The notes beneath the pieces are model-generated. The model worked only from the letters and a program-made list of their open reading frames with translations, had not been told where the DNA came from and did no database searches. A stretch of 64,000 nt of DNA. It comes from a virus. This document shows, piece after piece, positions 11,664 through 28,907 of this stretch. Numbering within the stretch: the first letter of the stretch is position 1; each line of letters begins with the position of its first letter. Made by a program: the position numbers and the translations under genes. Location: the IMG/VR virus record IMGVR_UViG_3300029305_004190; one strand, given 5' to 3'.

Positions 11664-11664
11664 T

Positions 11665-12016: not shown

Positions 12017-13159
12017 ATGAATATGATTTATATCACAGTAAAACAATCTCCGATATATCATCAAATGACTATCGAAGAACTCCTTATGCAGGATTTCACT
12101 GCTCCTGCAGTTATAAATCCGAATTTGACAAACACAAAAACATACGAAGTGGAGTATGTTAGCGAAAGATTCATGCGCAGACTTGATGTGGATATGCTTA
12201 TTGCAAAGCTCGTCCAGTTCAATCAGTCGGTTGAATCGCTGCGCCAACAGAAACGCAGCGACCTGTATGAAACATTCTATATTCCTAAAAAGTCAGGTGG
12301 TCTTAGAAGAATCGACGCACCCAAAGCTGAACTTATGGATGCGTTGCGTCGGCTCAAGACCATCTTGGAAGAAGATTTCCATGTTCTCTATCATACATCA
12401 GCATTTGCCTATGTAAAAAAGCGTTGTACAGTTGATGCAGTTAAGCGCCACCAAGCCAACAACAGTAAGTGGTTTGGCAAGCTCGACCTCCACGATTTCT
12501 TTGGAAGCACCACTTTGGATTTCGCTATGTCTATGCTTTCAAAAATCTTCCCTATCAGCGAAGTGGTTAAGGTGGAGACAGGCAGAAATGCATTGCAATG
12601 CGCGCTCGAACTTGCTTTCCTTAATGGCGGACTTCCGCAGGGGACTCCCATTTCACCGCTCATCACAAATGTTATGATGATTCCGGTTGATTTCAAGTTG
12701 GCAAATACCTTGAGAGAGTTTGAACAGCAGAAATTTGTGTACACCAGATATGCGGATGACTTTATCATTTCGTCCAAATATGACTTTGATGTACATAAGG
12801 TCGAAGAACTTGTTGTTTCAACTCTCAAGGATTTCAATGCTCCATTTTCAATCAACGCTTCTAAAACAAGATATGGCTCATCTGCAGGACGAAATTGGAA
12901 TCTCGGTGTAATGCTGAATAAAGACAACGAGATTACAGTTGGTCACAAAAAGAAACACCAGCTTCAGTCTATGATGTTCAACTATATCACCGATAAACGT
13001 AAGGGCATCGAGTGGAGTCGTGAAGACATCATGGTAATGCAGGGACTGCATAGCTATTATCGCATGGTTGAAGAAACAGTGATTGATGCAATCGTAAAAC
13101 ATATCAATGAAAAGATGGGCGTAGATGTATTGCGCCTTATCAAAGAAGATTTAAGATAA
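12017..13159 (+). CDS. Reverse transcriptase, retron-type (RT-only, 380 aa)
   Basis: FYIPKKSGGLRRIDAP (RT motif 1/2), LDLHDFFGST (motif 4), GLPQGTPISPL (motif 5), YTRYADDFII (YxDD); C-terminal region aligns by eye with retron Ec86 RT around the VTG region (here NLGVMLN) and downstream (IMVMQGLHSYYRMVE ~ HVRGWLSFILSVD); GGAGG SD. Confidence 0.85.
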   Translation: MNMIYITVKQSPIYHQMTIEELLMQDFTAPAVINPNLTNTKTYEVEYVSERFMRRLDVDMLIAKLVQFNQSVESLRQQKRSDLYETFYIPKKSGGLRRIDAPKAELMDALRRLKTILEEDFHVLYHTSAFAYVKKRCTVDAVKRHQANNSKWFGKLDLHDFFGSTTLDFAMSMLSKIFPISEVVKVETGRNALQCALELAFLNGGLPQGTPISPLITNVMMIPVDFKLANTLREFEQQKFVYTRYADDFIISSKYDFDVHKVEELVVSTLKDFNAPFSINASKTRYGSSAGRNWNLGVMLNKDNEITVGHKKKHQLQSMMFNYITDKRKGIEWSREDIMVMQGLHSYYRMVEETVIDAIVKHINEKMGVDVLRLIKEDLR

Positions 13160-13214
13160 ACAACTGGCGGTTGGACAAACCGTCCACCCTGTAATGCATA
13201 GCCTTTCGAGGCGC

Positions 13215-13253
13215 TTATCGCTTATGGCATAAGTAACACATTGGTGAGAAAGA
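13215..13253 (+). repeat. Copy 2 of the ~40-nt motif (cgcttatggcataagtaacacattggtgagaaag), followed by a GC-rich hairpin region
   Basis: Shares aagtaacacattg core and flanks with copies 1 and 3. Confidence 0.55.
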
Positions 13254-13487
13254 AGGAAGGCGGGCGACGCGACGCCGGGCTCCGAAGACCGGTCATCGCA
13301 CAACTTCAGTCCAATTCATCTGATGAGATTTACCTTCAAGCCCTTGTCGCACAATAAGACACTGCTCATCGCTCACCAGCAAAGCAGGTTCTGCAGCATG
13401 AATCCGGTATCCTTCTGCTGGCAGCCATCCTACGTAGATTACAGGAAATAAAACACATTTGCAATGAATAATACTCTATTGAGTATG

Positions 13488-13528
13488 CTTTACGCTCATG
13501 GCTAAAGTACCAACTTGCTCGGAGAACA
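13488..13528 (+). repeat. Copy 3 of the ~40-nt motif (ctttacgctcatggctaaagtaccaacttgctcggagaaca), followed by a GC-rich hairpin region
   Basis: Shares ctttacgc...ggctaaagta...ttgct.ggagaa with copy 1. Confidence 0.55.
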
Positions 13529-13747
13529 GAGGGCACGCACTGGAGGTGCCGTCCCGGTGACCATGGTCTGGCAAGAGCTTGGACAACATCCTCAGAAAGC
13601 CCAAACCACTGTGCCACAATAAGGACGACCCGAATTCAACTGTAAAATATAATTTTTACAGCTCTATAAAAGATGTCTCCTAAGCTTCCGCCCAGTCTTC
13701 AGATGCCTGCTTATCCTATGTAGATTGCAAATGAGAAAGGAAAATTC

Positions 13748-14434
13748 ATGATATATGTAACCGGTGATATCCACGCACACATCGACATCGGGAAGTTAAA
13801 TACACAGAGATTTCCCCAACAAAAATCATTGACTAAATCGGACTATCTCATCGTATGCGGTGATTTTGGACTGGTATGGGATAACTCCAAAAGTGACCTG
13901 TATTGGCGAGATTGGCTGTCAGATAAACCATTTACCACATTGTGGGTGGATGGAAACCATGAGAACTTTGAACTGTTATATCAGTTCCCGCTTGAAGATA
14001 AATTCGGCGGAAAGGTTCGTGAAATCGCACCCAGCATATATCATTTGGATAGAGGACAAGTCCTCACCATTGACAATAAGACGTTCTTTGTTATGGGCGG
14101 TGCTGCTTCGCATGACAAAGAATATCGCAAGGAACATATATCTTGGTGGAAAGATGAGTTGCCAACCGTCGCAGAGATGGAACGAGGTATCAAAGCACTT
14201 GAAGCCAATAACTGGACAGTTGATTTCGTTATTTCACATTGCGCTCCGCGCTCTGTCCAGACAATGATTGCCAGTTGGTATGAAAGTGACCCATTGGTCA
14301 GCTTCTTTGAACGAGTTCGAACAGACCTTAATTTTAAGAAGTGGTTCTTTGGTCACTATCATGTTGATAAACAGCTTAACGAGCAGTTTATTGCACTGTA
14401 TAACAATATTATTCCTCTCGATACAGTTTGTTGA
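13748..14434 (+). CDS. Calcineurin-like metallophosphoesterase
   Basis: GDIHAH, CGDFG, GNHE motifs in canonical order. Confidence 0.8.
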   Translation: MIYVTGDIHAHIDIGKLNTQRFPQQKSLTKSDYLIVCGDFGLVWDNSKSDLYWRDWLSDKPFTTLWVDGNHENFELLYQFPLEDKFGGKVREIAPSIYHLDRGQVLTIDNKTFFVMGGAASHDKEYRKEHISWWKDELPTVAEMERGIKALEANNWTVDFVISHCAPRSVQTMIASWYESDPLVSFFERVRTDLNFKKWFFGHYHVDKQLNEQFIALYNNIIPLDTVC

Positions 14435-14515
14435 CAAAAATGAAATCTGGAACATATTGTGGCGCAGTTGTTTAATGACTATTTGATAGAATGTGTTATT
14501 GCATATAACACATAC

Positions 14516-14589
14516 AGGGGTGTGGTGTAATGTAACATAGCGGTCTCCAAAACCGCCTGATTGGGGTTCGAATCCCTACACCCCTGCCA
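14516..14589 (+). tRNA. tRNA-Trp (anticodon CCA) with atypical D loop lacking GG
   Basis: AGGGGTG/CACCCCT acceptor, GCGGT-CTCCAAA-ACCGC anticodon arm, TGGGG-TTCGAAT-CCCTA T arm, G-CCA; D arm GTGT-AATGTA-ACAT. Confidence 0.65.
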
Positions 14590-14836
14590 GTTGTCGGGTC
14601 GCTCCCGACTGATGTGAGAGTGTGAGCAGGAATCCTCACGGAGAATAACAATGTCCGCTGAAAACAGTATGAATGCGTACCACGACAGGTCAATGAATCT
14701 GTCACGCTTAACATACCGACAATCTAAGCGGGAACTGCTCCAAAAAAGACATTTTAACTGGATGTCGCGCCCTGCTCGGGAGAAAGAGCCGCCACCCGGA
14801 GGGCGACCATGGTGAAAAAAACATCCGGGGCACTAA

Positions 14837-14931
14837 TGGGGTATCGCCAAGCGGTAAGGCATCAGACTTTGACTCTGACAAGAGCGGTGTAATGCCCTCG
14901 CTCGCCGGTTCGAATCCGGCTACCCCAGCCA
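14837..14931 (+). tRNA. 95-nt tRNA with anticodon TTG (Gln) but an unusually long (~24 nt) variable arm
   Basis: TGGGGTA/TACCCCA acceptor, GCC-AAGCGGTAA-GGC D arm, TCAGA-CTTTGAC-TCTGA anticodon arm, variable arm GAGCG-12nt-CGCTC, GCCGG-TTCGAAT-CCGGC T arm, G-CCA. Confidence 0.55.
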
Positions 14932-14957
14932 ATAAAAATCAAGAAAGGAATTGAACA

Positions 14958-15515
14958 ATGAAACCTTATGATGTAGGCTTAATATGTGGACGATTCCAGA
15001 CTTTTCATAAAGGACATGAGAAGTTGGTGGAAACAGGCTTGATGCTCTGTGACCGTCTTCTCATTCTCATCGGAAGCTCTCAGGAATGTGGTACAGAACG
15101 TAATCCATTAAATATCAATACAAGAACCAAGATGCTGAAGATGGTATATGGTGATGACCCAAACATTATGATATATGGTCTCCCTGACCTGTCAAATGAA
15201 AATGATATCCGTCCTGAATGGGGACGTTATTTGCTTGCCAACGCAGACCGATACATCTATAAGAATCCCGATGTCATGATTTATGGCAACGATGAGAGTA
15301 GAAGCGCTTGGTTTGCAAAAGAAGATTTGAAATATACAACAGAACTTATCATCAATAGAAGCGAGCTTCCTATCTCCGCGACTATGTTAAGAAAATACAT
15401 GGTTGAGGATAACCGCAAGGCTTGGATGGAGCTTGTGAATCCAAAGCTTCATAAGATGTATGATGAACTTCGCCGTGAACTCATGACAGTTGAATTCTAT
15501 CAACAAATGTCATAG
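14958..15515 (+). CDS. nadM: Nicotinamide/nicotinate mononucleotide adenylyltransferase (NMNAT, NadM/NadR-type cytidylyltransferase fold)
   Basis: ICGRFQTFHKGHEKLV (HxGH nucleotidyltransferase motif), 185 aa, C-terminal ISATMLR; GGAA SD. Confidence 0.8.
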   Translation: MKPYDVGLICGRFQTFHKGHEKLVETGLMLCDRLLILIGSSQECGTERNPLNINTRTKMLKMVYGDDPNIMIYGLPDLSNENDIRPEWGRYLLANADRYIYKNPDVMIYGNDESRSAWFAKEDLKYTTELIINRSELPISATMLRKYMVEDNRKAWMELVNPKLHKMYDELRRELMTVEFYQQMS

Positions 15516-15674
15516 TCAATAAACAAGGGTTTACAGTAATGACTCCAAACCAGAAACCCTGAGACCTACCATGTAGGGCGACAGCGATTGTGTAAGGCAA
15601 CGTATTGCGCTGTTAGGGAGTTATGTGAAAGTCAAGCCATCCAATTCTGGATGTTCCGTTATAGCCGGCATCAT

Positions 15675-15768
15675 GGAGAGTTAAGCATAATTGGTACTGC
15701 AGCGGATTGCTAATCCGTTCGCCGTCATTTAGTGCGGCGTGGAGGTTCGAGTCCTCTACTCTCCGCCA
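15675..15768 (+). tRNA. tRNA-Ser (anticodon GCT), type II
   Basis: GGAGAGT/ACTCTCC acceptor, GCGGA-TTGCTAA-TCCGT anticodon arm, CGCCG-TCATTTAGTG-CGGCG variable arm, GGAGG-TTCGAGT-CCTCT T arm, G-CCA. Confidence 0.75.
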
Positions 15769-15771
15769 AGT

Positions 15772-15847
15772 GCTGGAATAGTTCAGTTGGCAGAACAGGG
15801 CATTCGTACTGCTCAGGTCTTCGGTTCGACTCCGAATTCCAGCTCCA
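15772..15847 (+). tRNA. tRNA-Thr (anticodon CGT)
   Basis: GCTGGAA/TTCCAGC acceptor, GTTC-AGTTGGCA-GAAC D arm, GGGCA-TTCGTAC-TGCTC anticodon arm, TTCGG-TTCGACT-CCGAA T arm, T-CCA. Confidence 0.8.
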
Positions 15848-16050
15848 TTTAGGAGAGGCTATACTCCGAGGTACCCTTGAGGTCTGGAGCAACAAGGAAA
15901 AAGAAAGTCCCCAGAATGTTTTACGGTGTTCAGACAAACCGCCATAGAGCAGAAGTGTTTAGGGTCAGTGCTCCCATATAGCAAGTGTGGAGAGACGGTA
16001 AGGACAAGGCGTGGAAATCTGCAGAAGCGCGAAAAACCCTTCACAAATAC

Positions 16051-16126
16051 GCTGGTGTAGCTCAGATGGTAGAGCACTGGTTTTGTACTCCAGATGTCGC
16101 GGGTTCGATGCCTGTCACCAGCTCCA
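16051..16126 (+). tRNA. tRNA-Thr (anticodon TGT)
   Basis: GCTGGTG/CACCAGC acceptor, TAGCTCAGATGGTAGAGC D arm, anticodon loop TTTGTAC, GCGGG-TTCGATG-CCTGT T arm, T-CCA. Confidence 0.8.
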
Positions 16127-16129
16127 TAC

Positions 16130-16205
16130 GCTGATGTAACTCAGTTGGTAGAGTAGCGGATTTTTAATCCGTCAGTCGCAGGTTCGACTCCTGTCATCGG
16201 CACCA
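16130..16205 (+). tRNA. tRNA-Lys (anticodon TTT)
   Basis: GCTGATG/CATCGGC acceptor, AACTCAGTTGGTAGAGT D arm, GCGGA-TTTTTAA-TCCGT anticodon arm, GCAGG-TTCGACT-CCTGT T arm, A-CCA. Confidence 0.8.
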
Positions 16206-16355
16206 CCCCTCAAAGGGGATGAACATAGTGTACGTGAACCTACAGTTCACACCTTCCTCTCTCATATATTGTCAAGCATTGATGTGATGCTTACGGTGAA
16301 GATGGCTTCGAACCCATCGGCAATATATGCTCCCTTTAACCGTATTCCTTCCTAT

Positions 16356-16431
16356 ATGGGCGTAGCGCAGTTGGAAGCGCACCTGCCTTGGGGACAGGGG
16401 GTCGTGGGTTCGAACCCCACCGCCCATACCA
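16356..16431 (+). tRNA. tRNA-Pro (anticodon TGG)
   Basis: ATGGGCG/CGCCCAT acceptor, GCGC-AGTTGGAA-GCGC D arm, anticodon loop CTTGGGG with G37, GTGGG-TTCGAAC-CCCAC T arm, A-CCA. Confidence 0.75.
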
Positions 16432-16453: not shown

Positions 16454-16942
16454 ATGCTTTTATATCACGGAACACCGAACATTTTTAGCGAACCGTCTCT
16501 CGCAAAGTGTAAGCCGCACCGAGATTTCGGATGCGGCTTTTATCTTGCCCAAAATTTTCAAGACGCTTTACCGCTCGCAATCAAGCATTCACGCATCGGA
16601 TATGTATATACCTATGTGCTCAAAGACACTGACGACCTCAACGTCATCACTTTGGATGGATATTCCGATGAGTGGCTTGAATTAGTTGTGCGGTCAAGGC
16701 TCGGCTGCCCTCCAAATGCCGATTTGGTAATCGGGAATACAGCAGGAGGCGGCGCAAACCTTAAAGATAAGTTCACTAAGCTGAGGAATAGTGATGCATC
16801 GGTTAAAGAAGTAATCAACCTCATGCGAGATGAGCTGACAAAAACAAGCCTTGGAATTCAGTATTGTTTTCTGACTCCGAAGGCTTTATCAAAACTTCAA
16901 AAAATCAATGGTGAAATGTTTGAAAGGGAGGCAATAAGATGA
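16454..16942 (+). CDS. Hypothetical protein (162 aa) with N-terminal LYHGT...GFY motif (possibly ADP-ribosyltransferase-like H-Y-E fold; unverified)
   Basis: AAGGAG SD; motif order YHGT / GCGFY / later acidic residues resembles the H-Y-[ED] ART signature but cannot be confirmed by eye. Confidence 0.5.
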   Translation: MLLYHGTPNIFSEPSLAKCKPHRDFGCGFYLAQNFQDALPLAIKHSRIGYVYTYVLKDTDDLNVITLDGYSDEWLELVVRSRLGCPPNADLVIGNTAGGGANLKDKFTKLRNSDASVKEVINLMRDELTKTSLGIQYCFLTPKALSKLQKINGEMFEREAIR

Positions 16943-17771: not shown

Positions 17772-17927
17772 AATGATAGAAAAGAATGTGAAAAAGCAGG
17801 AAGCAAAACGCAGGCGTAATTTCTGGACTTGTGCTCGCCCTGTTACTCAAATCGTCCCAAATAAAAAGGCTTACAATCGTAAGCGTGCAAAAGATACAAT
17901 AAATAAGAAAGGTGGAGGATTCGAATG
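17772..17927 (+). CDS. Small basic protein (51 aa), not in supplied ORF track
   Basis: ATG preceded by AACGGAGGTGAG SD; MIEKNVKKQEAKRRRNFWTCARPVTQIVPNKKAYNRKRAKDTINKKGGGFE; stop overlaps start of next gene. Confidence 0.3.
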
Positions 17928-18479
17928 AATAAGGTTCTTGTTGTTGTCGATATGCAGAAAGACTTCGTGGATGGAGCGCTTGGCAGCAAGGAGGCAGTTG
18001 CAATCGTTCCAAAAGTGGTTGAGAAAATCAATGGATTTGAGGGGCTTTTTGCGGTAACGCATGACACTCATACCAACGCTTATCTCGATACGCAGGAAGG
18101 AAAGAATCTGCCGGTAGTTCACTGTGTCGAACAGAGCGACGGTTGGCAGTTGACACCCCCTGTATACGATGCGCTGAACAATCGCTTTAACGACGGAGTT
18201 TTGCCGCAGTTTTTCTACAAGCCTACATTTGGCTCCGTCGAGTTAGCTGACTGGCTGCTCAACGTGAACAAAAAGACTGCCGTTGACGAAGTCGTTCTCA
18301 TCGGTTTATGTACCGATATTTGCGTTATCTCAAACGCAATGCTTATCAAGGCATTTTTACCCGAGGTCAAGGTAACAGTGGATGCGGCGTGCTGCGCCGG
18401 TGTCACTCCTGAAAGCCACAACAATGCACTGGCTGCAATGAAGATGTGCCAGATTAACATCGAAAACTGGGAGGGCTAA
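17925..18479 (+). CDS. pncA: Isochorismatase-family cysteine hydrolase, probable nicotinamidase (PncA-like)
   Basis: VVVDMQKDF N-terminal motif, catalytic Cys context LIGLCTDICV, 184 aa; GGAGG SD. Confidence 0.75.
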   Translation: MNKVLVVVDMQKDFVDGALGSKEAVAIVPKVVEKINGFEGLFAVTHDTHTNAYLDTQEGKNLPVVHCVEQSDGWQLTPPVYDALNNRFNDGVLPQFFYKPTFGSVELADWLLNVNKKTAVDEVVLIGLCTDICVISNAMLIKAFLPEVKVTVDAACCAGVTPESHNNALAAMKMCQINIENWEG

Positions 18480-18480: not shown

Positions 18481-19284
18481 ATGATTTCTGTTAACAATCA
18501 GCCTATCGACTTTACTTCGTTTCCCGATGGAACAACATCGTTTCGTTATGAGCCGCAGGAAGATTCCGATTTTACAATCGAATGGCGGTATGACAGCGAT
18601 AAAGAGTGTATCCTGCTGTGGTATCTTACCAAGCACATCAGGCAGTGTTACCTGAATGCCAATATCACTCTCGTTCTTCCGTATATCCCCAATGCCAGAA
18701 TGGACAGGGTTAAAAACAAGGACGAAGTATTCACGCTGAAATACTTTGCAGAAATCATCAACATCCTGCACTTCAATGAAGTTTATGTGTGCGACCCACA
18801 CTCCAGCGTCTCAACAGCTCTTCTGGATAGAGTCAAGGTAATCGACGCCAAGGAAAATATCGAAGAAGTTCTTCGAATTCTCGATAGCAATCAGAAGAAA
18901 GATATCCTTCTTTGCTATCCTGACGAAGGTGCTGCAAAGCGCTATTCAGAACAGCTTAACGCCGAGTATGTCTTCTGCATTAAGCACCGCGACTGGCGAA
19001 CCGGAAAGATACAGAGGTTGGAGCTCACGTCCCCCGAAACAGTTAAGGGCAGAAATATTCTTATCGTTGATGATATCTGTTCACGCGGCGGCACGTTCAC
19101 TTTTACCGCACAGGCATTGAAAGATGCAGGTGCAAAAGAGGTTTTCCTGTACGTTACACACTGCGAAAACACTATCGAAAAGGGTTCAGTTCTCACTGAT
19201 GGGCTGATTTCTCATGTGTTTACCACGAGCAGTATTTACCGTGGAAATCATGCTAATGTAACTGTATTCAAAGGGGGATATTGA
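18481..19284 (+). CDS. Ribose-phosphate pyrophosphokinase (PRPP synthetase)-like protein; candidate ADP-ribose pyrophosphate synthetase (Adps) of a phage NAD+ reconstitution pathway
   Basis: Type I PRTase PRPP-binding loop ILIVDDICSRGGTF in C-terminal half, Prs-like two-domain length (267 aa); coupled to pncA-like gene. Confidence 0.7.
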   Translation: MISVNNQPIDFTSFPDGTTSFRYEPQEDSDFTIEWRYDSDKECILLWYLTKHIRQCYLNANITLVLPYIPNARMDRVKNKDEVFTLKYFAEIINILHFNEVYVCDPHSSVSTALLDRVKVIDAKENIEEVLRILDSNQKKDILLCYPDEGAAKRYSEQLNAEYVFCIKHRDWRTGKIQRLELTSPETVKGRNILIVDDICSRGGTFTFTAQALKDAGAKEVFLYVTHCENTIEKGSVLTDGLISHVFTTSSIYRGNHANVTVFKGGY

Positions 19285-19682
19285 TGGGCATCGAAGAAGT
19301 TGAAGCATTATGTAAAGAAAGAAATCTTCCATATAAAGGCGAATTTCTCAAGTCGCTGAGTGATGAACAGCGAGATGCAGGATATATAAAATTCAATATT
19401 CCTGATATCGAAAATCTCGACAGTGCAAACGGTGAAGGTGTCTGGGGATGGGTTTCTCCAGAAGATAAACTAAAACATGATGATGACCGTTATCATGGAG
19501 AGATTACCGCAATCTTGTGTAATACACCGCTTAACTTCTATGGTATTCTTTGGTGGGGCTCTGAGGTCAAGATTACTTGCCATGGAAGTTCTCGCCCCAC
19601 ATTGTCAAAACAATGGGTAACAGACAATATTCTGAATGCGCCGTGGTTTGACAATAATGACGACAATATCGAAGAAGATTAA
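19281..19682 (+). CDS. Hypothetical protein (133 aa)
   Basis: ORF overlapping upstream stop (ATGA), acidic C-terminus. Confidence 0.55.
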   Translation: MMGIEEVEALCKERNLPYKGEFLKSLSDEQRDAGYIKFNIPDIENLDSANGEGVWGWVSPEDKLKHDDDRYHGEITAILCNTPLNFYGILWWGSEVKITCHGSSRPTLSKQWVTDNILNAPWFDNNDDNIEED

Positions 19683-19706
19683 CAATATCCCAAGGAGGGC
19701 AAACAT

Positions 19707-20912
19707 ATGATTGAGTTGCAAGGCAAGTATGCAACTGCGAAGGTGTTCACCGATGTGGTTGATAATGAATCAATCTCACAGGTAATCAACCTTTTGAATC
19801 AACCCTACATAGAGGGCAGCAAAGTTCGTATGATGCCGGACATCCATGCTGGAGCTGGATGCACCATCGGCACCACTATGACAATCAGTGATAAGATTTG
19901 CCCGAATCTTGTTGGCGTTGATATCGGATGCGGAATGGAAACCATCCGCATCAAGGAAACTTTCATCGAGCCGCAGAAGCTGGATAAAGTTATCCGTTCA
20001 GAAATTCCATCCGGTTTTGAAATCCGTAAGAATCCGCACCGTTTCGCTAAAGGCATTGATTTATCTGCATTGTATTGCGCCAAGAAGATTAAGCTCGACC
20101 GAGCATATAACAGCATTGGCACACTTGGTGGAGGTAACCACTTTATCGAAGCGAACAAAGACGAAGATGGTCATATCTACATCGTAGTTCACTCCGGTAG
20201 TCGCCATCTCGGTTTGGAGATTGCTAATCTGTATCAGGAGGCGGCGTATGCTTCACTCACCTCTTACAGCAAGGATGAAATCGAAAAGATTATCGAGGAA
20301 CTGAAGGCTGCGGGGCGGCAGAAAGAAATTCAGAATGTTCTGAAAAACTTGAAAGCCAAGCATTCTCCGATTCCGAAACCTCTTGCTTATGTTGAGGGAG
20401 AACTGTTCGAGCAGTATCTGCACGATATGCGCATTGCTCAACAGTACGCCAACCTCAACAGAAAAGCAATGATGGACACTATCGTGAAAGCGATGGGTTT
20501 CCACGTTGAAGAACAGTTTACCACAATTCATAACTACATTGATGTGGAAAATATGATTCTGCGCAAGGGAGCTGTATCGGCTCAGGCTGGCGAACGCCTG
20601 CTGATTCCTATCAATATGCGTGACGGTAGTTTGGTGTGCACTGGTAAAGGCAACGAGGATTGGAACTGTTCCGCACCTCACGGTGCCGGTCGGTTAATGA
20701 GCCGAAGCGAGGCAAAGCAAACCTTCACTGTTTCTGAGTTCAAGAAACAGATGGACGGTATCTACACCACTTCTGTTGGACGAAGCACACTCGATGAATG
20801 CCCGATGGCATATAAGAATATGGAAGATATCGTGAAAAACGTAGAACCAACTGTCACGATTGATTCCGTTATCAAGCCTATCTACAACTTCAAGGCGGGT
20901 GATGAAGAATGA
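19707..20912 (+). CDS. rtcB: RtcB-family RNA 3'-phosphate ligase
   Basis: VGVDIGCGM, GGGNHFIE, VHSGSRHLG, HNYIDVEN, CSAPHGAGR motifs in RtcB order; AAGGAGGG SD. Confidence 0.9.
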   Translation: MIELQGKYATAKVFTDVVDNESISQVINLLNQPYIEGSKVRMMPDIHAGAGCTIGTTMTISDKICPNLVGVDIGCGMETIRIKETFIEPQKLDKVIRSEIPSGFEIRKNPHRFAKGIDLSALYCAKKIKLDRAYNSIGTLGGGNHFIEANKDEDGHIYIVVHSGSRHLGLEIANLYQEAAYASLTSYSKDEIEKIIEELKAAGRQKEIQNVLKNLKAKHSPIPKPLAYVEGELFEQYLHDMRIAQQYANLNRKAMMDTIVKAMGFHVEEQFTTIHNYIDVENMILRKGAVSAQAGERLLIPINMRDGSLVCTGKGNEDWNCSAPHGAGRLMSRSEAKQTFTVSEFKKQMDGIYTTSVGRSTLDECPMAYKNMEDIVKNVEPTVTIDSVIKPIYNFKAGDEE

Positions 20913-21151
20913 TTGTTTTTCTGGTTTTCTTTTTCATCTTCCTGTACATCCTTATAGGCGCGGCTGTCACATATTACCTACATTATTTGTACAGCAATAA
21001 AGCGTGCTATAAACCCAAAGAAACATATGATTCCATTTCAACCCCTTCATACTGTGTGGTGATAGGAATTTTCTGGCTCTTTGCAGCACCGTTTGCTTTT
21101 GCATTATATTATTCACGTTACGGATTTCCGCAATCCAAAGAAAAGAGGTAA
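20909..21151 (+). CDS. Small hydrophobic membrane protein (80 aa)
   Basis: Two predicted TM segments (MIVFLVFFFIFLYILIGAAV..., IGIFWLFAAPFAFALYY); overlaps upstream stop. Confidence 0.45.
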   Translation: MIVFLVFFFIFLYILIGAAVTYYLHYLYSNKACYKPKETYDSISTPSYCVVIGIFWLFAAPFAFALYYSRYGFPQSKEKR

Positions 21152-21157
21152 CATCAA

Positions 21158-22672
21158 ATGATTCAATACAATCCACTTTTGTGTCTGGACTTCTACAAGA
21201 CTGCTCATGCGGAACAGTACCCGCAGAGCTTGACCAAGATGGTTTCTTACTACACTCCTCGTATGAGCCGACTGGCTGATACGGAAAAGGTAACTCTGTT
21301 CGGATTGCAGGCATTCATTCAGGAGTATCTTGTCGATGCGTTCAATGAGAACTTTTTTGGTAAGCCCTACCCGAAGGTTCTTGAGGAGTACAAACGTGTC
21401 CTCGGTGCAACAATCGGTACGACTGGTGTCGGCGAAAAGCGCATCGAAAAACTTTACAACCTTGGCTATCTCCCCCTGAAGATTCGTGCGGTGCCTGAGG
21501 GTACACGAACCAATATCAAGGTTCCGCAAATTGAAATTTCCAATACACACCCCGACTTCGTATGGCTTGTCAACAGTATCGAAACGATGTTGTCCAGTAC
21601 AATGTGGCACACGCAGGTTTCCGCAGAAGTTGGCTACAGATACCGTCAAATCGTCAATGAATATGCAGATGAAACCTGTGATGACAGCGTTGCTCGTGCA
21701 AGACTTCTTGGCGATTTTTCAATGCGTGGTCAGGAAAGTGTTGAGAGCGCAACAAAGAGTTCTGCGGCATTCTGCTTGAGCTTCCTCAACACGGCAACAG
21801 TCCCTGCAATTCTGTGGCTGGAAGACAATTACGATTGTGACTGTGAAAAGGAGCCCGTTGCCTTTGGCGCTCTTTCCACAGAGCACAGTGTTATGTGTTC
21901 CAACTATGCTGTAGATGGTGATGAGATTACACAGATTCGAAGACTTCTGACAAGCATCTATCCTCACCAGAATTTCTCGATGGTCAGCGACAGCTACGAT
22001 TACTGGAATCTGGTTGACAATCTTTTGCCACAGCTCAAGGACGAAATCCTTGCTCACGATGGTTTCATTTCCATTCGCGGAGACAGTGGTGACCCTGTCG
22101 ATGTTGTTACCCAGACAGTATTTAAGCTGTGGGATATCTTCGGCGGTACCGTAAACAGCAAGGGGTATAAAGTTCTCGACCCTCACGTCAAAGCCATCTA
22201 TGGCGATAGCATTACACCACAGAGATGCGAGGCAATCTATAAGATTCTAAAAGAGAACGGCTTCGCAATCAACAATGTTTCTCTTGGCGTTGGTTCATTC
22301 TCAATGCAGTGCCTTGAAACCATTACAATGGAGCATATGGGTAACTGTGCGATGGGTGTCAGAACTCATTATTCACCGTATACTCGTGACACGTTCGGCA
22401 TTGCGGTTAAAGCTACTTATGCCGAAGACGAGAACGGCAATCCCATCATGATTTTCAAGAACCCCAAGACCGACAGCGGAAACTTCAAGAAGTCGCAGCG
22501 TGGTTGTTGCCGTGTATATAAGACAGATAATGGATATGCGTATGAGGACGGCTTAACTTGGGCAGAAGCTCAGGAAGAGAACGAACTGATTACGGTATTT
22601 GAGAACGGTGAATTTGTCAAGCGCTACACGCTGAACGAAGTTCGCCAGAATCTCCATGGGGGTAATTTCTGA
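21158..22672 (+). CDS. nadV: Nicotinamide phosphoribosyltransferase family protein (NAMPT/NadV, or the homologous Namat)
   Basis: N-terminal NPLLCLDFYKTAHAEQYP (NAMPT D-x-YK-x-H-x-x-QYP signature), 504 aa typical NAMPT length, GDS/ GVGS phosphoribosyltransferase segments; GAGG SD. Confidence 0.85.
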   Translation: MIQYNPLLCLDFYKTAHAEQYPQSLTKMVSYYTPRMSRLADTEKVTLFGLQAFIQEYLVDAFNENFFGKPYPKVLEEYKRVLGATIGTTGVGEKRIEKLYNLGYLPLKIRAVPEGTRTNIKVPQIEISNTHPDFVWLVNSIETMLSSTMWHTQVSAEVGYRYRQIVNEYADETCDDSVARARLLGDFSMRGQESVESATKSSAAFCLSFLNTATVPAILWLEDNYDCDCEKEPVAFGALSTEHSVMCSNYAVDGDEITQIRRLLTSIYPHQNFSMVSDSYDYWNLVDNLLPQLKDEILAHDGFISIRGDSGDPVDVVTQTVFKLWDIFGGTVNSKGYKVLDPHVKAIYGDSITPQRCEAIYKILKENGFAINNVSLGVGSFSMQCLETITMEHMGNCAMGVRTHYSPYTRDTFGIAVKATYAEDENGNPIMIFKNPKTDSGNFKKSQRGCCRVYKTDNGYAYEDGLTWAEAQEENELITVFENGEFVKRYTLNEVRQNLHGGNF

Positions 22673-23139
22673 TGTCAATCAAGATTATTGACGGCGACCT
22701 GTTCAACACAAAAGCAAAGTATATCTGCCATCAGGTGAATTGCCAAGGTAGGATGGGGAGTGGTGTTGCTAAACAGGTTCGAGTCAAATTCCCGGAAGCA
22801 TACAAGGCATACTCTGACAGATGCAACGGCGAAAAGAGTATGAAAGACCCGCTCTGGACACTGGGCAAAGCACAGTTTGTGAGATGCAGCAACGGTGTTA
22901 CTATCGTAAATATGTATTCGCAAGGTAATTATGGCTACGATGGTAAACAGTATACAGACTATTCAGCTTTCCAGAATTGTCTGCACGAAATCCGAAAAAC
23001 AGTTCCCACTGATGCTGTGATTGCAATGCCGTATAAAATCGGATGCGGTCTTGGCGGCGGCGATTGGAACATTGTCATGGAGCTAATCGAAAAAGAACTT
23101 CCCGACCACACCGTAGAGTTGTGGAGAAAAGAGGCGTAA
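22672..23139 (+). CDS. Macro-domain (ADP-ribose binding/hydrolase) protein
   Basis: ICHQVNCQGRMGSGVAKQV and later CGLGGGDW glycine-rich loops characteristic of macro domains; 155 aa. Confidence 0.7.
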   Translation: MSIKIIDGDLFNTKAKYICHQVNCQGRMGSGVAKQVRVKFPEAYKAYSDRCNGEKSMKDPLWTLGKAQFVRCSNGVTIVNMYSQGNYGYDGKQYTDYSAFQNCLHEIRKTVPTDAVIAMPYKIGCGLGGGDWNIVMELIEKELPDHTVELWRKEA

Positions 23140-23140
23140 T

Positions 23141-23896
23141 ATGCTTGTTGACCCCAAGAAAACAAAGGACGATGTAGTCCAGTGGATTCGCAATTACTTT
23201 GCTGAAAATGGCAAAGATTGTTCAGCAGTTATCGGTATCTCCGGTGGAAAGGACAGCAGTATTGTAGCCGCTCTTTGCGTCGAAGCACTTGGTGCGGATA
23301 GGGTTGTCGGTGTTTTAATGCCAAATGGCAGGCAGAAAGACATTGCTGACTCAACTCGTCTTGTGGAAGCGCTCGGAATCCAAAGCATTGTTGTGAACAT
23401 CGGCGGTGCATACTGCAACATGGTTGATGTTCTTGGACGTACAGTTCCGGGTGGAATCAGCGAACAGGCAAAAATCAATCTTCCTCCCAGACTCAGAATG
23501 GCAACACTCTATGCAGTAGCTCAGTCCATTCCGGGTGGCGGTAGAGTTGCAAATACTTGCAATCTTTCGGAAGATTTCGTTGGTTACTCCACGAAATTCG
23601 GTGACAGTGCAGGTGACTTCAGTCCTCTTGCCAACCTTATGGTTCACGAAGTTGTACAGATTGGTCACGAGCTTCCCATCCCCGCTGACCTTGTTGATAA
23701 AGTGCCGTCCGATGGGCTGTGCGGTAAAACCGATGAAGATAACCTCGGTGTAAGTTACCGCGAAATTGACAGCTACATTGAAACAGGAACCTGTGCGGTA
23801 GCCGCGCATGAGCATCGCATTGAGGATTTACACAGAAAGAATCTTCATAAGGTAAATCCCATGCCTGCGTTCAGCAAATATAGTGTTCAATCGTAA
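23141..23896 (+). CDS. nadE: NH3-dependent NAD+ synthetase (NadE)
   Basis: PP-loop SGGKDSS, overall NadE architecture (251 aa), coupled to macro gene. Confidence 0.85.
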   Translation: MLVDPKKTKDDVVQWIRNYFAENGKDCSAVIGISGGKDSSIVAALCVEALGADRVVGVLMPNGRQKDIADSTRLVEALGIQSIVVNIGGAYCNMVDVLGRTVPGGISEQAKINLPPRLRMATLYAVAQSIPGGGRVANTCNLSEDFVGYSTKFGDSAGDFSPLANLMVHEVVQIGHELPIPADLVDKVPSDGLCGKTDEDNLGVSYREIDSYIETGTCAVAAHEHRIEDLHRKNLHKVNPMPAFSKYSVQS

Positions 23897-23909
23897 GGTG
23901 AAACACAAG

Positions 23910-25196
23910 ATGTTGGAAACAATCGCGCAAATCTATTGCCTCCAGAATATGGTGGGTTCAATCAAAAAGATGGAAGTATTACGGGAGTTCAAGGATAACG
24001 AGGACTTCCGTAAACTTTTATATTATGCTCTGAATCCTATGTTAACCTACAAGATTTCAGAGCACACACTTCGCAAAGAAGTAGAGTACGACCCAACAAT
24101 TACGCTTACACTGACAGATATTTATACCATATGCGAAACACTCTCAAACCGCAAGGCTTTGGATGATGCCACCGTGTATCAGGTATGTACATATCTGCAG
24201 TGTATGTGTGACCCTGAAGAAGCTAAGTTTTACATTAAGCTCCTTTCCAAAACACTTCGCCTTGGAGTAACAGCAAAAACGGTCAATAAAGTTATTCCCG
24301 GATTGATACCCGAATGGGAAGTACAACAGGCATATCCCATTGACAAATATCCTGTTAAAAACGACACCGAGTTTTGGCTCACACAGAAGCTGAACGGAGT
24401 TCGGGCTACATATTATAAAGGAAAACTTTATGCGAGAAGTGGTGTTCCGTTCAAAGGGCTTGAACACATAACAAGTGTGCTTGAGTGGTTGGAGAGTGAA
24501 GCGAGCTATCCGCAAGTTTTTGACGGAGAGCTGACACTGAAAAACAAAAACAGCCTCAGCGACAACGAAGCTTTCCGCATAGCCACGGGCATTATAAACT
24601 CATCAGATGATGATAAAACGGCAATTTGCTATACAGTTTTTGATGTTCTTCCTGCAAACGAGTTTGAGGGTGGAGAAAGTAAAGAGTTGTATGGTAAAAG
24701 ACGTGCTCAGCTTGAAGACATCAGGGCTATACTTCCTGATGAATGCCCGGTATATATTTTGCCCGTTCTGTATCACGGCAGTAACTCAGCCAAGATTGAT
24801 GAATATCTTGAGCAAATGGTTCGTGAAGACAAAGAGGGACTGATGCTTAATCTCGATGTTCCGTACAAGTGTAAACGACATAACGGAATATTGAAGGTCA
24901 AGCGTTTCTACGCAATGGACTTGCGAATCACAGGTTGCGAAGAAGGAACAGGAAGACTGGCTGGAACTTTGGGTGCTTTTGTACTTGATTATAAAGGAAA
25001 CGAGGTTCGTGTTGGTTCCGGTTTCACCGACGAACAGCGTACAGAATTCTGGGCAAATCGTGAAAGCATTATTGGACTTCTATGCGAAGTAAAATACAAA
25101 GAAATATCCTACGATAAAAACACCGGCGCAGATAGTCTGCAGTTTCCGGTGTTTGTTACGTTAAGGACAGATAAAGATGATGTGAGCTTCGCTTAA
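23910..25196 (+). CDS. lig: ATP-dependent DNA ligase
   Basis: Motif I KLNGVRA (KxNG), motif IV EGLMLN, motif V LKVK; ATG 8 nt after AAGGTGA (track lists GTG 23883 overlapping nadE stop). Confidence 0.8.
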   Translation: MLETIAQIYCLQNMVGSIKKMEVLREFKDNEDFRKLLYYALNPMLTYKISEHTLRKEVEYDPTITLTLTDIYTICETLSNRKALDDATVYQVCTYLQCMCDPEEAKFYIKLLSKTLRLGVTAKTVNKVIPGLIPEWEVQQAYPIDKYPVKNDTEFWLTQKLNGVRATYYKGKLYARSGVPFKGLEHITSVLEWLESEASYPQVFDGELTLKNKNSLSDNEAFRIATGIINSSDDDKTAICYTVFDVLPANEFEGGESKELYGKRRAQLEDIRAILPDECPVYILPVLYHGSNSAKIDEYLEQMVREDKEGLMLNLDVPYKCKRHNGILKVKRFYAMDLRITGCEEGTGRLAGTLGAFVLDYKGNEVRVGSGFTDEQRTEFWANRESIIGLLCEVKYKEISYDKNTGADSLQFPVFVTLRTDKDDVSFA

Positions 25197-25220: not shown

Positions 25221-25619
25221 GTGGGTAAAAGCAATAAACCCAAGCCACCGCAGTTTTCACACTCCATCAGTGCGTTCTGTAAGCTGATGGAAGATGCAAA
25301 AAGTGATTATGCGTGGAATTTCAGCGAGGTCAACCGAATGGACAGGCTTACACAGGATTACCTCCACAAACTTGAGCTGGAAGACCTCGATTATCAAGAA
25401 CGAGCCAAAATCGCAACTCAGTTGAGAAGATGCAGACAGGCTCGCAGAGCGTGTAAAGACACGGTCGAGGTTTTGGAACCGCTCGTCCAATTTTTAGAAA
25501 GCGATAAAGGCAAAAACCTTTTGAACCTTGTGCGTGAAGCGTTAGGAAAGACCAGAAAAGTTGAAGAACGCATGGAAACCCGCACATACATACCAAGAGT
25601 CTTAGAACAGGAGGAATGA
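25221..25619 (+). CDS. Hypothetical protein (132 aa)
   Basis: GTG start after AAGAGGAGG SD; basic/helical. Confidence 0.55.
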   Translation: MGKSNKPKPPQFSHSISAFCKLMEDAKSDYAWNFSEVNRMDRLTQDYLHKLELEDLDYQERAKIATQLRRCRQARRACKDTVEVLEPLVQFLESDKGKNLLNLVREALGKTRKVEERMETRTYIPRVLEQEE

Positions 25620-25620: not shown

Positions 25621-25800
25621 ATGAACATAGTTTTCTGGCTCCTAATCATTATTGCTCTTGTTTTGGTGTGGTTCTGTCTGAGCTTTGCATTCAAAGGCGT
25701 TGGCGGAATCGGACTGAAACTGTACAATGATGCGAAAGACGAAATCACAGGCAAAGATGAAAAACATGAATCAAAGGAGAACAACAAGAATGAAGGGTAA
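25621..25800 (+). CDS. Small membrane protein (59 aa), not in ORF track
   Basis: MNIVFWLLIIIALVLVWFCLSFAF TM segment; ATG 2 nt after upstream stop; overlaps next gene by 12 nt. Confidence 0.35.
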   Translation: MNIVFWLLIIIALVLVWFCLSFAFKGVGGIGLKLYNDAKDEITGKDEKHESKENNKNEG

Positions 25801-26710
25801 GATTGGTGCAGTTATTATCGCCGTAGTGCTTCTGTTGGCACTCATCTGCTGCGTTAGCTGTCTGGAAAAGGTTCCGGCAGGTTATGTTGGCGTTGTGTAC
25901 AACATGAATGGCGGCGTTGACGGAGAAGTTCTGACACAGGGTTGGCATCTGGTGGCTCCCACTAAGAAGGTCACTACATATTCAATCGGTCTGGAACAGT
26001 CATATTTGACTTCTGAGAAAAAGGGTGATTCACCGAACGATGAGAGTTTCAGTATTCCTACATCAGACGGTAAAACTGTTAAGGTGAACCTCGAATTTTC
26101 ATACCGCTTTGATGAAGCGCGTGTGGCAGAAACATTCGTCATGTTTAAGGGTAAGTCAGGCGAATCAATCAAGGATACATTTATTAAGCCCAAGGTCATT
26201 GCTTGGACACAGGAAGTTTCTGCGAATTACCCCGTAACAGATATTTTTGGTGATAAGCGTACAGAAATCAATGCAGAGCTCGATGTTTATCTGCGTGATA
26301 AGTTTAACCAGTACGGTATTATCATCGACACAGTAAACTTTACAGACATTTCAGTAGATGAGGAGACTGCAGCAGCAATCCAGAAGAAAGTAACGGCACA
26401 ACAGGAGCTTGAGCTGGCAACAATCGAGGCGCAGACTGCACAGATTCAGGCGCAGAAAGAAAAGGATGTCGCTCGCATTGCTGCTGAAAAGGATAAGGAA
26501 GTAGCACAGATTGCGGCTGAGAAAGCGCTCATCGAAGCCAACGCACAGGCTGAGGTCATTCGAATTGCTGCCGAGGCGGAAGCAGAGGCAAACCGCGAAA
26601 TTGCAGCATCTCTTACTTCCGAACTGATTGAGAAGATTAAGTACGAACAGTGGAATGGTGTTCTTCCTACGGTTTCCGGCGCAAGTGCGCTGGTAAGCAT
26701 CGAGCCCTAA
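25789..26710 (+). CDS. SPFH/band-7 (stomatin/prohibitin/HflK-like) membrane protein
   Basis: N-terminal TM (IGAVIIAVVLLLALICC), SPFH core (GYVGVVYN...GWHLVAP), C-terminal A/E/Q-rich coiled coil; AAGGAG SD (track start 25727 judged too early). Confidence 0.75.
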
Positions 26711-27824: not shown

Positions 27825-28907
27825 ATGCGTAAATTAGCGTCAATCAGACAGATTGCCAATATCCGTCCAATTCCCGGTGCCGACCGAATTGTTGTGGCAC
27901 AGGTTGACGGTTGGGAATGTGTCGTTCAAAAAGATGAATTCCATGTAGGCGACCATGTCGTTTATGTCGAAGTCGATTCGGTAATGCCTGAACGTCCCGA
28001 GTTCGAGTTTTTGCGTGACCGAAAGTTCCGAGTGAGAACCATTAAGCTTCGTGGTCAAGTCAGCCAAGGATTGGTTCTTCCTCTTTCAATTCTTCCCGAG
28101 GGCGATTACTCCTTAGAGGATGATGTTACGGAGTTACTTGGTGTTACCAAGTACGACCCGGAAGCACAGCAGGAGGCGATGCTGCTTCAGAAACAGCCTG
28201 CTCCTCCCAAGAATGCTCTCATTCGATTCCTGATGCGATTCAAGTGGTACCGCAAGCTCTTTATGAAATCCAAACGCAAGGGCGGATTTCCTGAGTGGAT
28301 TACTAAGACGGACGAGACTCGCATTCAGAATCTGACCACACTTTTCAACCATGAACGTGACAAGGGAACGAAATTTTCAGTCACTGAAAAGGTGGATGGT
28401 CAGTCAGCTACATATTATCTTCGTAAAATCTCCAAGAGAAAATATGAGTTCGGCGTATGCAGTAGAAATATCTACCTTGGTACACCGGATAACAGTTCCT
28501 ACTGGACGGTTGCAAAACAGTATGACATCGAGAAAGCGCTCAAGAAGCTCATCGGTGATAATAATACCATTGTAATGCAGGGCGAAATCTGCGGCACTGG
28601 AATCCAAGGAAACAAGTACCACATCAATGGCTACGAGCTGTTTGTTTTCAATCTGATTTTCCCCGACCGTAAGTGTACAACCGCCGAAATTGCAGAACTT
28701 TGCGCCCCCCTCGGACTCAAGACAGTACCTATTCTGGAAGAAGAAAAGGTGCTGCCGCAGACCATTGCCGAAATGGTGGAGTATTCAAAGGACAACTCTG
28801 TTGTGCGTAAAGAGCAGAAGCGAGAGGGTGTTGTGGTTCGCAACATCAGAAACAATATCAGCTTTAAGGTAATCAATCCTGATTTCCTTTTAGCGGAAAA
28901 GGACTAA
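27825..28907 (+). CDS. Putative RNA ligase (covalent nucleotidyltransferase, Rnl-like)
   Basis: KVDGQS lysine-adenylate motif I (KxDG) mid-protein, later EGVVV and K-rich motif V-like region; N-terminal OB-like segment. Confidence 0.55.
   Translation: MRKLASIRQIANIRPIPGADRIVVAQVDGWECVVQKDEFHVGDHVVYVEVDSVMPERPEFEFLRDRKFRVRTIKLRGQVSQGLVLPLSILPEGDYSLEDDVTELLGVTKYDPEAQQEAMLLQKQPAPPKNALIRFLMRFKWYRKLFMKSKRKGGFPEWITKTDETRIQNLTTLFNHERDKGTKFSVTEKVDGQSATYYLRKISKRKYEFGVCSRNIYLGTPDNSSYWTVAKQYDIEKALKKLIGDNNTIVMQGEICGTGIQGNKYHINGYELFVFNLIFPDRKCTTAEIAELCAPLGLKTVPILEEEKVLPQTIAEMVEYSKDNSVVRKEQKREGVVVRNIRNNISFKVINPDFLLAEKD

Follow-up and report, generated by a model that had tools for sequence, protein, structure and literature searches.

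The sequence analyzed here is a 64 000-nucleotide (nt) stretch of viral DNA (IMG/VR record IMGVR_UViG_3300029305_004190), referred to below as the window; these 64 kb are the part of the genome that was visible. At positions 19707–20912 on the + strand it contains a gene for a predicted RtcB, a 3′-phosphate/2′,3′-cyclic-phosphate RNA ligase of 401 amino acids (aa), which the original prediction had placed in a dispersed arsenal for repairing tRNAs cut by host nucleases. Pfam scans, which took in all window open reading frames (ORFs) of ≥60 aa and were run as concatenates, matched the protein over its full length to PF01139 (E 1e-66; 226 bits, cut-off 27); against NCBIfam equivalogs, which are stricter, it stayed below the cut-offs (133 vs 407). 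Solved RtcB structures were also matched by sequence. Catalytic competence was judged by the residues of P. horikoshii RtcB that serve as metal ligands and guanylylated His nucleophile (D95, C98, N202/H203, H234, H329 and H404). The motifs MPDIH, VDIGCG, GGNHF, VHSGSR, IHNY and APHGAGR were all complete; VDIGCG, GGNHF and VHSGSR were aligned by HMMER to 1UC2, APHGAGR was aligned to both 1UC2 and 2EPG, and IHNY was read by eye. By alignment and motif reading together, the metal-binding Asp, Cys and His residues and the His nucleophile were all found, so that the gene proposed at this position is indeed an intact ligase gene. A strong Shine-Dalgarno sequence, AAGGAGGG, lies 8 nt 5′ of the RtcB ATG. 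The 133-aa ORF preceding RtcB had no homologue in the relatives described below, in Pfam or in PHROGs. Among cofactors and partners of RtcB, archease, RtcA, Rsr/Y-RNA and PrfH were not detected in the window by Pfam scans and Rfam.

By megablast, positions 19000–22000 gave no match in 50 697 phage records, and hence the phage has no close cultured or sequenced relative at the DNA level. RtcB itself is common in phages, being found in 700 of these records. In IMG/VR, ∼37 related gut viral contigs of 50–133 kb were found, with RtcBs 79–89% identical to that of the window. The best genome match for RtcB (83% identity) was a 134-kb contig binned with an Acutalibacteraceae metagenome-assembled genome, and the RtcBs of Clostridia genome assemblies (Ruminococcus, Oscillospiraceae and Lachnospiraceae), which may be chromosomal or prophage copies, were 65–70% identical. 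These matches point to a host in the Oscillospirales, among the gut Clostridia, and a derivation of the RtcB gene from Clostridia is suggested. To count linkage between genes, all proteins of the window were compared by tblastn with 160 fetched loci, some of which are cited by their labels (L002, L092, L114, L154 and the like). In the cultured Bacillus phages Kioshi and BPS10C, RtcB was found in a context without NAD or repair linkage.

The order of genes around RtcB was well kept in the relatives. It was found by tblastn to be reverse transcriptase (RT)–MPE1 (a metallophosphoesterase)–[tRNAs]–DUF3990–acidic protein–[PncA–Prs-like]–RtcB–[Nampt-like–Macro–NadE]–DNA ligase–u132–Band7–transmembrane protein–(YunG)–Rnl5, and this arrangement is called block A below. 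On the + strand of the window it includes an ATP-dependent DNA ligase (23883–25196, PF01068/PF14743/PF04675), a conserved 132-aa protein (u132, 25221–25619) and, between DNA ligase and Rnl5, a Band7/SPFH protein (25727–26710, PF01145). The RtcB–DNA ligase–Band7–Rnl5 linkage was present in ∼30 related contigs, and the synteny of RtcB, ligase and Rnl5 held down to 79% RtcB identity. In ∼13 relatives without NAD genes, DNA ligase follows RtcB directly. Band7/SPFH proteins recur near repair genes: in Fusobacterium phage Fnu1 (L245, 5995–8198) a prohibitin/Band7 protein lies two genes from a Thg1-like gene. Between the tRNA array and RtcB, most relatives keep the DUF3990 protein (16454–16942, PF13151 E 4e-21), which also matched the PADLOC candidate defence families PDC-M13B and PDC-M10A (E 2e-19).

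The gene at 27825–28907 (+), which had been recognized as a KxDG ligase, could be assigned more sharply. It encodes a predicted ATP-dependent nick-sealing RNA ligase of the Rnl5 (DraRnl/NgrRnl) family with an N-terminal OB domain (PHA02142, E 2e-33) and an adenylyltransferase domain (PF09414, E 3e-23). The protein matched Naegleria gruberi RNA ligase (5COT) end to end with E 6e-49, residues 1–113 and 152–360 being aligned, and its KxDG motif with the motif I lysine (TEKVDGQS) was aligned with TVKLDGSS of NgrRnl. It scored 181 bits against the cut-off of 151 in TIGR02306 (RNA_lig_DRB0094). Homologues of Rnl5 occur in 344 of the 50 697 phage records, and the gene was kept in 33 relatives at ≤10 kb downstream of RtcB. 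Rnl5 ligases join 3′-OH/5′-PO4 nicks in duplexes (PMC7261155, PMC4408790). By its sequence, the predicted ligase of the window is not an anticodon-loop tRNA ligase of the T4 Rnl1 type.

It was observed that RtcB is flanked by genes of NAD+ metabolism. All enzymes of the originally predicted arsenal were present in the window, although that list had omitted these flanking genes as well as RlaP, a cysteine desulfurase, NADAR and Macro proteins. Upstream on the + strand lie a nicotinamidase-like gene (PncA, 17925–18479, PF00857) and a Prs/Adps-like gene (18481–19284, PF00156/PF14572); downstream on the same strand lie a Nampt/Namat-like gene (21158–22672, PF04095 and PF18127), a Macro gene (22672–23139, PF01661) and an NAD synthase gene (NadE, 23141–23896, PF02540). 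The Pfam scan also placed an NMNAT-like gene at 14958–15515 and a NADAR gene at 32711–33292. The best matches of the Prs-like protein were phage proteins, and it was 37.6% identical over 94% of its length to a protein at the characterised SPbetaL1 Adps locus. The Prs-family and Nampt-family genes have together the same Pfam signature as NARP1, with the pair split by RtcB. Between the two genes, here and in ∼19 relatives, stand RtcB and a small membrane ORF; in Phass-1, BPS10C and FADO the two adjoin each other. In ∼19 relatives RtcB is flanked by NAD genes upstream and downstream, and the Prs-like gene stops 25 nt short of the RtcB gene.

The Nampt-like–Macro–NadE genes were present in ∼20 relatives and absent in ∼13. 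Because RtcB persists in relatives without NAD genes, it was regarded as a backbone gene independent of them, with the NAD genes as an accessory. Between 17925 and 25196, neighbouring genes are separated by −14 to +24 nt, the junctions within 21158–23896 being overlaps or gaps of 1 to 14 nt, and no convincing terminator was found on the + strand before 30544. Promoter matches in a scan of the window were at chance level; therefore, an operon was argued from the gene spacing and the lack of a convincing terminator only. NAD and repair genes were also neighbours in unrelated phages: FADO carries the Prs–Nampt pair and, after four further genes, Thg1; the order in L130 and L132 is NAMPT–NADAR–NadE–Thg1. 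RNA repair has previously been linked to NAD+ systems (PMC9503650). The simplest reading is that RtcB and the NAD genes share an anti-abortive-infection island.

A second group of genes, block B, begins with the Thg1-like gene at 38718–39560 (+, PF04446 E 1.5e-32). The gene was confirmed as proposed, and its product is a bacterial-type Thg1-like protein (TLP), a predicted 3′–5′ templated polymerase. It matched the Bacillus thuringiensis TLP 4KGK with E 1.8e-66 (52% identity class), with the RIDG and SDEI catalytic motifs aligned, and its matches to eukaryal Thg1 structures were far weaker (E about 1e-7). TLP homologues occur in 164 of the 50 697 phage records, and at least 12 contigs hold both RtcB and TLP. 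The next member, the metallophosphoesterase MPE2 (40080–40634, +, PF12850 [Metallophos_2] E 2e-6), is a candidate 3′-end healing enzyme; it is weakly similar to aq_1665 (1XM7) and to the ligase-associated PdeM, and lies directly 3′ of Thg1 in 15 relatives. It is followed by a NifS/IscS-like cysteine desulfurase (CysDes, 41401–42588, +, PF00266 E 2e-81), which matched NifS/IscS/DndA models with E 1e-120 to 1e-100, none reaching the equivalog cut-off. Its position between MPE2 and RlaP was kept in relatives, and it might supply sulfur, possibly for tRNA thiolation.

RlaP (42597–43628, +, PF10127 E 1.7e-13, 51.3 bits against a cut-off of 23) is an RNA-ligase-associated Pol-beta nucleotidyltransferase with a GGS...DVD motif seen in the sequence; no solved structure was matched by sequence search. 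Its gene overlaps the start of the CCA gene, the two being adjacent in 19–20 relatives; here and in relatives, RtcB and Rnl5 are within 8–25 kb of RlaP. The biochemistry of the family, which restores one or two nucleotides, fits a role in repair (PMC12776372). The last member (43621–44982, +) is a class II CCA-adding tRNA nucleotidyltransferase with a C-terminal HD domain (PF01743 E 1e-38, PF12627, PF13735 and PF01966). The motifs GGCVRD..DWD, RRDFTINA, EDALR and LLLHDIGK were read in its translation, with the head motifs complete. It scored 290.5 bits against the cut-off of 290 in NF009814, and poly(A) polymerase (PcnB) models stayed well below their cut-offs, which bore out the CCA-adding enzyme named in the original prediction (43618–44982).

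Block B, in the order Thg1-like–MPE2–CysDes–RlaP–CCA, was found in ∼15 relatives, followed by CI(−)–MazF–MrpR in ∼12. Permuted orders were also observed, with RlaP–CCA–Thg1 in L092 and L093 and Thg1–RlaP–CCA in L154, in which the genes abut or overlap. In L154, RtcB, DNA ligase, an Rnl5-like ligase, Thg1, RlaP and CCA all lie within 12.3 kb, and in L114 within about 20.7 kb. Since the adjacency of Thg1, RlaP and CCA survives re-ordering, there is good evidence that these three are functionally coupled; for the coupling of MPE2 and CysDes with them the evidence is fair. The repair genes are thus not dispersed, as had been supposed, but form two conserved clusters, A and B, across ∼35 related gut-phage contigs.

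The tRNA genes of the window were examined with ARAGORN, which gave 12 genes at 4193–16431 on the + strand (three Leu, two Ser, two Thr, Trp, Gln, Lys, Pro and one with a defective anticodon arm), of which 10 passed the Rfam tRNA model. Together with a tRNA-Tyr-derived tRNA-like gene of 109 nt at 4535–4643 (+), which Rfam does not call a tRNA, this falls short of the about 14 tRNA genes counted before. One of the genes is a tRNA-Lys(UUU). In all 12 genes the 3′ CCA is encoded and the 7-bp acceptor stem is fully paired. Neither the window nor five relatives had a tRNA-His, no credible tRNA intron was found by the intron mode of ARAGORN, and Rfam detected neither group I introns nor any other RNA family connected with splicing in the window.

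These features bear on a rival explanation, tRNA biogenesis, in which the CCA enzyme, TLP and RtcB would mature phage or host tRNAs by CCA addition, tRNA-His G-1 addition and splicing, and so boost translation with the phage codon set. Such a role could be imagined because the enzymes share the accessory region with the 12 tRNA genes, because phage Thg1 homologues are usually annotated as tRNA-His guanylyltransferase, because two tRNA-like genes are aberrant, and because tRNA-His or CCA-less tRNA genes could exist beyond the visible 64 kb. Nevertheless, with the CCA encoded, the stems paired and neither an intron nor tRNA-His found, the CCA enzyme, TLP and RtcB are unnecessary for maturing the phage tRNAs. 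A need for the CCA enzyme in maturation was ruled out by the encoded CCA in 12 of 12 genes, and 5′ editing of mismatched acceptor stems by TLP was ruled out by the full pairing of every stem. Splicing by RtcB was likewise rejected: the sole extra candidate of the intron mode was a dubious tRNA-Asp(AUC) with an 11-nt intron at 4535–4643, which is really the tRNA-Tyr-derived gene. In addition, the protein is a bacterial TLP and not a eukaryal, G-1-adding Thg1, and RlaP and Rnl5 have no maturation role. Because the phage tRNA genes need no CCA addition, 5′ editing or splicing, repair is favoured over maturation, and we regard biogenesis as unlikely.

Several further RNA features were observed. 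Both tRNA-like genes, at 4193–4265 and 4535–4643, have intact acceptor and T arms, an encoded CCA and defective anticodon arms. The former has an anticodon arm of 13 nt instead of the usual 17 and an Rfam tRNA score of 47.5 bits; the latter is tRNA-Tyr-like in its acceptor and T arm and rearranged in the middle. An exact-match search for the tRNA-like gene in viral contigs returned nothing, or ordinary tRNA-Tyr genes of unrelated phages, and a decoy, a pseudogene or a primer are guesses at what these genes might be. The tRNA-Gln(UUG) gene (14837–14931) has a 20-nt insertion that gives a long, class-II-like variable arm, with U1-A72, G2-C71, G3-C70 and G73 retained; a similar insertion is present in the closest relative, L002, and L003 has a normal 75-nt gene. 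A RAGATH-16 RNA motif (RF03047) was found at 219–291 (+) (86 bits, gathering score 65.6, E 2e-15).

One more candidate healing enzyme is a Zn-ribbon plus HAD_SAK_2 phosphatase at 33641–34255 (+, PF18143 E 7e-22, 78.7 bits against a cut-off of 27.5), which might be an RNA 3′-phosphatase and is an isolated, variable accessory gene. The protein has the motifs LFLDYDGVV (motif I) and IIVDDED (motif IV), and no homologue among solved structures was found by sequence search. The HAD protein had been anticipated, with a start at 33642 that proved to be one base out of frame; the in-frame ATG of the ORF (33602–34255) is at 33641.

Taken together, we consider it about 60% probable that the window represents the early/accessory region of a large phage infecting gut Clostridia (Oscillospirales-like host) and that this region carries a multi-enzyme toolkit for the repair of RNA, mainly tRNA, beside its own tRNA genes. 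Family chemistry, motifs, linkage, tRNA features and a toolkit predicted for large phages in the literature (PMC7824862, PMC9503650) make phage tRNA repair against host tRNases, as originally predicted, the best reading, except that the Rnl5 ligase is not of the anticodon-loop type and no polynucleotide kinase was found with it in the window. In the scheme set out here, the RtcB and Rnl5 steps rest on family membership and established family biochemistry, and we infer the end-rebuilding, replacement-tRNA and NAD+ steps. Using GTP and Mn2+, RtcB would join 2′,3′-cyclic-phosphate or 3′-phosphate ends directly to 5′-OH ends, such as would be left by metal-independent RNases (anticodon nucleases, HEPN RNases and MazF-type toxins), and Rnl5 would seal 3′-OH/5′-PO4 nicks in base-paired RNA. 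TLP could refill a trimmed 5′ acceptor strand with the 3′ strand as template, the CCA enzyme could restore the 3′ CCA with help from its HD domain, and RlaP could add back one or two nucleotides lost at the break. MPE2 and the HAD_SAK_2 phosphatase would be candidates for removing blocking 3′ phosphates, and the phage tRNAs might stand in for tRNAs beyond repair. RtcB would be co-transcribed with a NARP1-like NAD+ reconstitution operon, so that RNA repair and NAD+ restoration might be deployed jointly against abortive infection.

The last step can be extended to a stronger proposal, in which RNA repair and NAD+ reconstitution are transcribed together as a single anti-abortive-infection unit and Thg1-like/MPE2/CysDes/RlaP/CCA make up an operon dedicated to rebuilding the acceptor stem at both ends; this is tentative and seems rather doubtful to us. 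The coupling could mean common induction, or RtcB could act on cyclic-phosphate ADP-ribose by-products of the NARP1 reaction. If it were functional and not merely positional, it would give a first physiological role to bacterial-type TLPs and Rnl5, and would provide a natural test of whether RlaP products are sealed by Rnl5, a 5′-phosphate ligase, or by RtcB.

Several observations weigh against a single repair pathway. Polynucleotide 5′-kinase, 2H phosphoesterase, KptA/Tpt1, RtcA and archease were not found in the 64-kb window by Pfam scans, nor, for the kinase, by a Walker-A scan. In that scan the DnaB helicase and a 77-aa ORF were the sole matches; the dNMP kinase (PF21448) has GKD and not GK[ST] and falls outside the pattern. 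Without a 5′ kinase in the window, breaks with 5′-OH ends cannot feed Rnl5, and the ATP-ligase arm is therefore incomplete for breaks made by metal-independent RNases. RtcB does not suit the 3′-OH ends that RlaP produces, a difficulty raised by the RlaP authors (PMC12776372); both ligase types, RtcB and Rnl5, are encoded by this phage. The physiological role of Rnl5 is uncharted, and it has been tied to radiation resistance in Deinococcus (PMC5397189). HAD_SAK_2 is not conserved in close relatives and was seen in only two distant ones, the constant neighbour of RtcB in relatives is a DNA ligase, and clustering in an accessory region can reflect shared regulation or gene accretion instead of one pathway.

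Gene accretion is itself a rival explanation, in which there is no integrated system and independently acquired accessory ('moron') genes have piled up in a hypervariable early region, the 'arsenal' being a grouping made by the reader. It would account for HAD_SAK_2, the NMNAT-like gene and the 133-aa ORF before RtcB, which are rare or unique to this phage, for the NAD genes, which ∼20 relatives have and ∼13 lack, and for the retron, the E1/JAB pair, NADAR and homing HNH genes in the same region. However, the adjacency of Thg1, RlaP and CCA that survives re-ordering, the conserved RtcB–ligase–Rnl5 synteny and the overlap of RlaP with the CCA gene make mere accretion quite improbable.

Directly after the CCA block, at least 12 relatives conserve a lysogeny or plasmid-like module, which occupies 46854–49835 in the window. 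On the minus strand it has a CI-like HTH/S24 repressor, with TTGACA-17-TATGAT as a divergent promoter; the other members are a 128-aa protein of no assigned family, a MazF/PemK-like toxin without a recognisable antitoxin (48441–48872, E 6e-19, with its own promoter-like TTGACT/TATACT site) and an MrpR-like tyrosine recombinase. E. coli RtcB has been reported to reverse or limit MazF damage to rRNA. The damage to be repaired might then be self-inflicted, with the phage's own endoribonuclease cutting RNA for host shut-off or plasmid-prophage maintenance and RtcB reversing or limiting the effect. The firm toxin match with its promoter-like site, the conservation of toxin, repressor and recombinase immediately after the CCA block, and the products of MazF (2′,3′-cyclic phosphate and 5′-OH), which are RtcB substrates, are all consistent with this. 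But MazF lies 28 kb from RtcB with no antitoxin recognised, it was not seen within 10 kb in many RtcB-bearing relatives, and TLP, the CCA enzyme and RlaP would be left unexplained; repair of such self-inflicted or addiction-module damage is thus very improbable.

The replication module was located by Pfam at 50.8–58.2 kb (ERF, SSB, PD-(D/E)XK nuclease, DnaB, primase and Pol III alpha), and ThyX, a dNMP kinase and a nucleotidase are also encoded in the window. RtcB can join DNA 3′-PO4 to 5′-OH. The processing of DNA or RNA–DNA hybrid ends, for example at ribonucleotide-containing nicks, by RtcB, Rnl5, ATP DNA ligase and a PdeM-like phosphoesterase in genome replication or repair would fit the DNA ligase beside RtcB in every relative (directly so in the ∼13 without NAD genes), the sealing by Rnl5 of nicks with an RNA 3′-OH strand in duplexes, the radiosensitivity of Deinococcus on loss of DraRnl (PMC5397189, PMC7261155) and the weak likeness of MPE2 to PdeM, but it is hardly credible given that TLP, the CCA enzyme and RlaP, which are RNA/tRNA-specific families, are linked to the same region, that RtcB is 65–70% identical to RtcBs in Clostridia genome assemblies and that the replication module lies elsewhere.

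Two other proposed members of the repair set were less secure. Both metallophosphoesterases are real (PF00149 and PF12850), but the membership of MPE1 (13748–14434, +, PF00149 E 1.5e-11) is doubtful: in 31 relatives it always immediately follows a retron-type RT, not a ligase, and it may be a partner of the retron RT. No solved homologue of MPE1 was found by sequence search. An HD-domain protein (50244–50813, +) does give a marginal match to PF01966 (E 1e-4; 22.7 bits, cut-off 22), but it adjoins the ERF/SSB/nuclease replication module and had no conserved linkage with repair genes in relatives, leaving its place in the toolkit unsupported.

The RT (12017–13159, +) had its best matches in retron RT models (RT_II-A, E 6e-47), and the region 11671–13159 is likely a phage-borne retron. 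An 11-nt inverted repeat, GAAGCTGTAAC (11671–11681) and GTTACAGCCTC (11987–11997), flanks ∼300 nt, and its second arm ends 20 nt upstream of where the RT begins. The repeat is found at the same position in relatives with compensatory changes (GAATTGTAAC/GTTACAATTC, AACTGTAAC/GTTACAGTT and TATCTGTAAC/GTTACAGATA); the region upstream of RT matched no Rfam family. Upstream of the RT, a conserved block at 7332–11663 encodes a possible beta-grasp protein of 76 aa, a 494-aa protein of no assigned family, a JAB/MPN-like protein (HxH...S..D motif) and a ThiF/E1-like protein, the last matching PADLOC E1-E2 (Cap2-like) models with E 7e-19, with a variable 270-aa protein after it. This block could be a ubiquitin-like conjugation or sulfur-carrier system.

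Finally, the gene set was compared with known systems. A predicted RNA-repair apparatus of large phages with a near-identical list was described by Iyer et al. 2021 (PMC7824862, section 3.4.9; citing Burroughs and Aravind 2016), comprising phage tRNAs, RtcB and ATP-dependent RNA ligases, kinases, HAD phosphatases including the standalone Swiss-army-knife family, calcineurin-like and HD phosphoesterases, RlaP, CCA enzyme and sporadic Thg1. The window phage has the same parts list, for which the same purpose was proposed, the reversal of host tRNA cleavage. It differs in that its ATP ligase is Rnl5 and not Rnl1/Rnl2, that no polynucleotide kinase, 2H or KptA was seen, that Thg1, RlaP, CCA and CysDes form a tight conserved cluster, that RtcB lies inside a NARP1-like operon, and that it is an uncultured gut phage of Clostridia without a close sequenced relative. 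The logic of healing and sealing is shared with phage T4, in which Pnkp and Rnl1 repair PrrC-cleaved tRNA-Lys (PMC7824862, PMC9503650), and tRNA-Lys(UUU) is encoded in the window. Pnkp, Rnl1 and polynucleotide kinase families were absent from the Pfam scans of the window, so the set is not of the T4 type; in place of Pnkp and Rnl1, the breaks would be sealed by Rnl5 or by RtcB, the latter requiring no prior healing of the ends.

With bacterial rtcBA and rtcB–rlaP–rtcA operons (PMC7790460, PMC12776372) the window shares a full-motif RtcB and RlaP in the same genome. Unlike these operons, it lacks RtcA, RtcR, Rsr and Y-RNA, its RlaP stands beside CCA and Thg1-like genes and not beside RtcB, and it adds the 5′-phosphate ligase Rnl5, which could accept the 3′-OH product of RlaP. 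The Prs and Nampt Pfam signature is shared with NARP1 adps–namat (Osterman et al. 2024, bioRxiv 10.1101/2024.02.11.579819), to which the predicted enzymes may correspond; unlike NARP1, the pair is interrupted by RtcB and the membrane ORF, and nicotinamidase, Macro, NAD synthase and NMNAT-like genes are added. The results mainly extend the published comparative-genomic picture to a new phage lineage and contain no new mechanism. If the toolkit works as proposed, phages that are widespread in the human and animal gut would counter two major classes of abortive infection together, tRNA/RNA cleavage and NAD+ depletion. The Thg1-like/RlaP/CCA cluster and the coexistence of RtcB with Rnl5 would offer a tractable setting for the in vivo roles of bacterial TLPs and Rnl5 and for the sealing of RlaP-extended 3′-OH ends. 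Set beside these systems, the window is a rather complete example of the predicted phage RNA-repair toolkit in an uncultured gut phage lineage.

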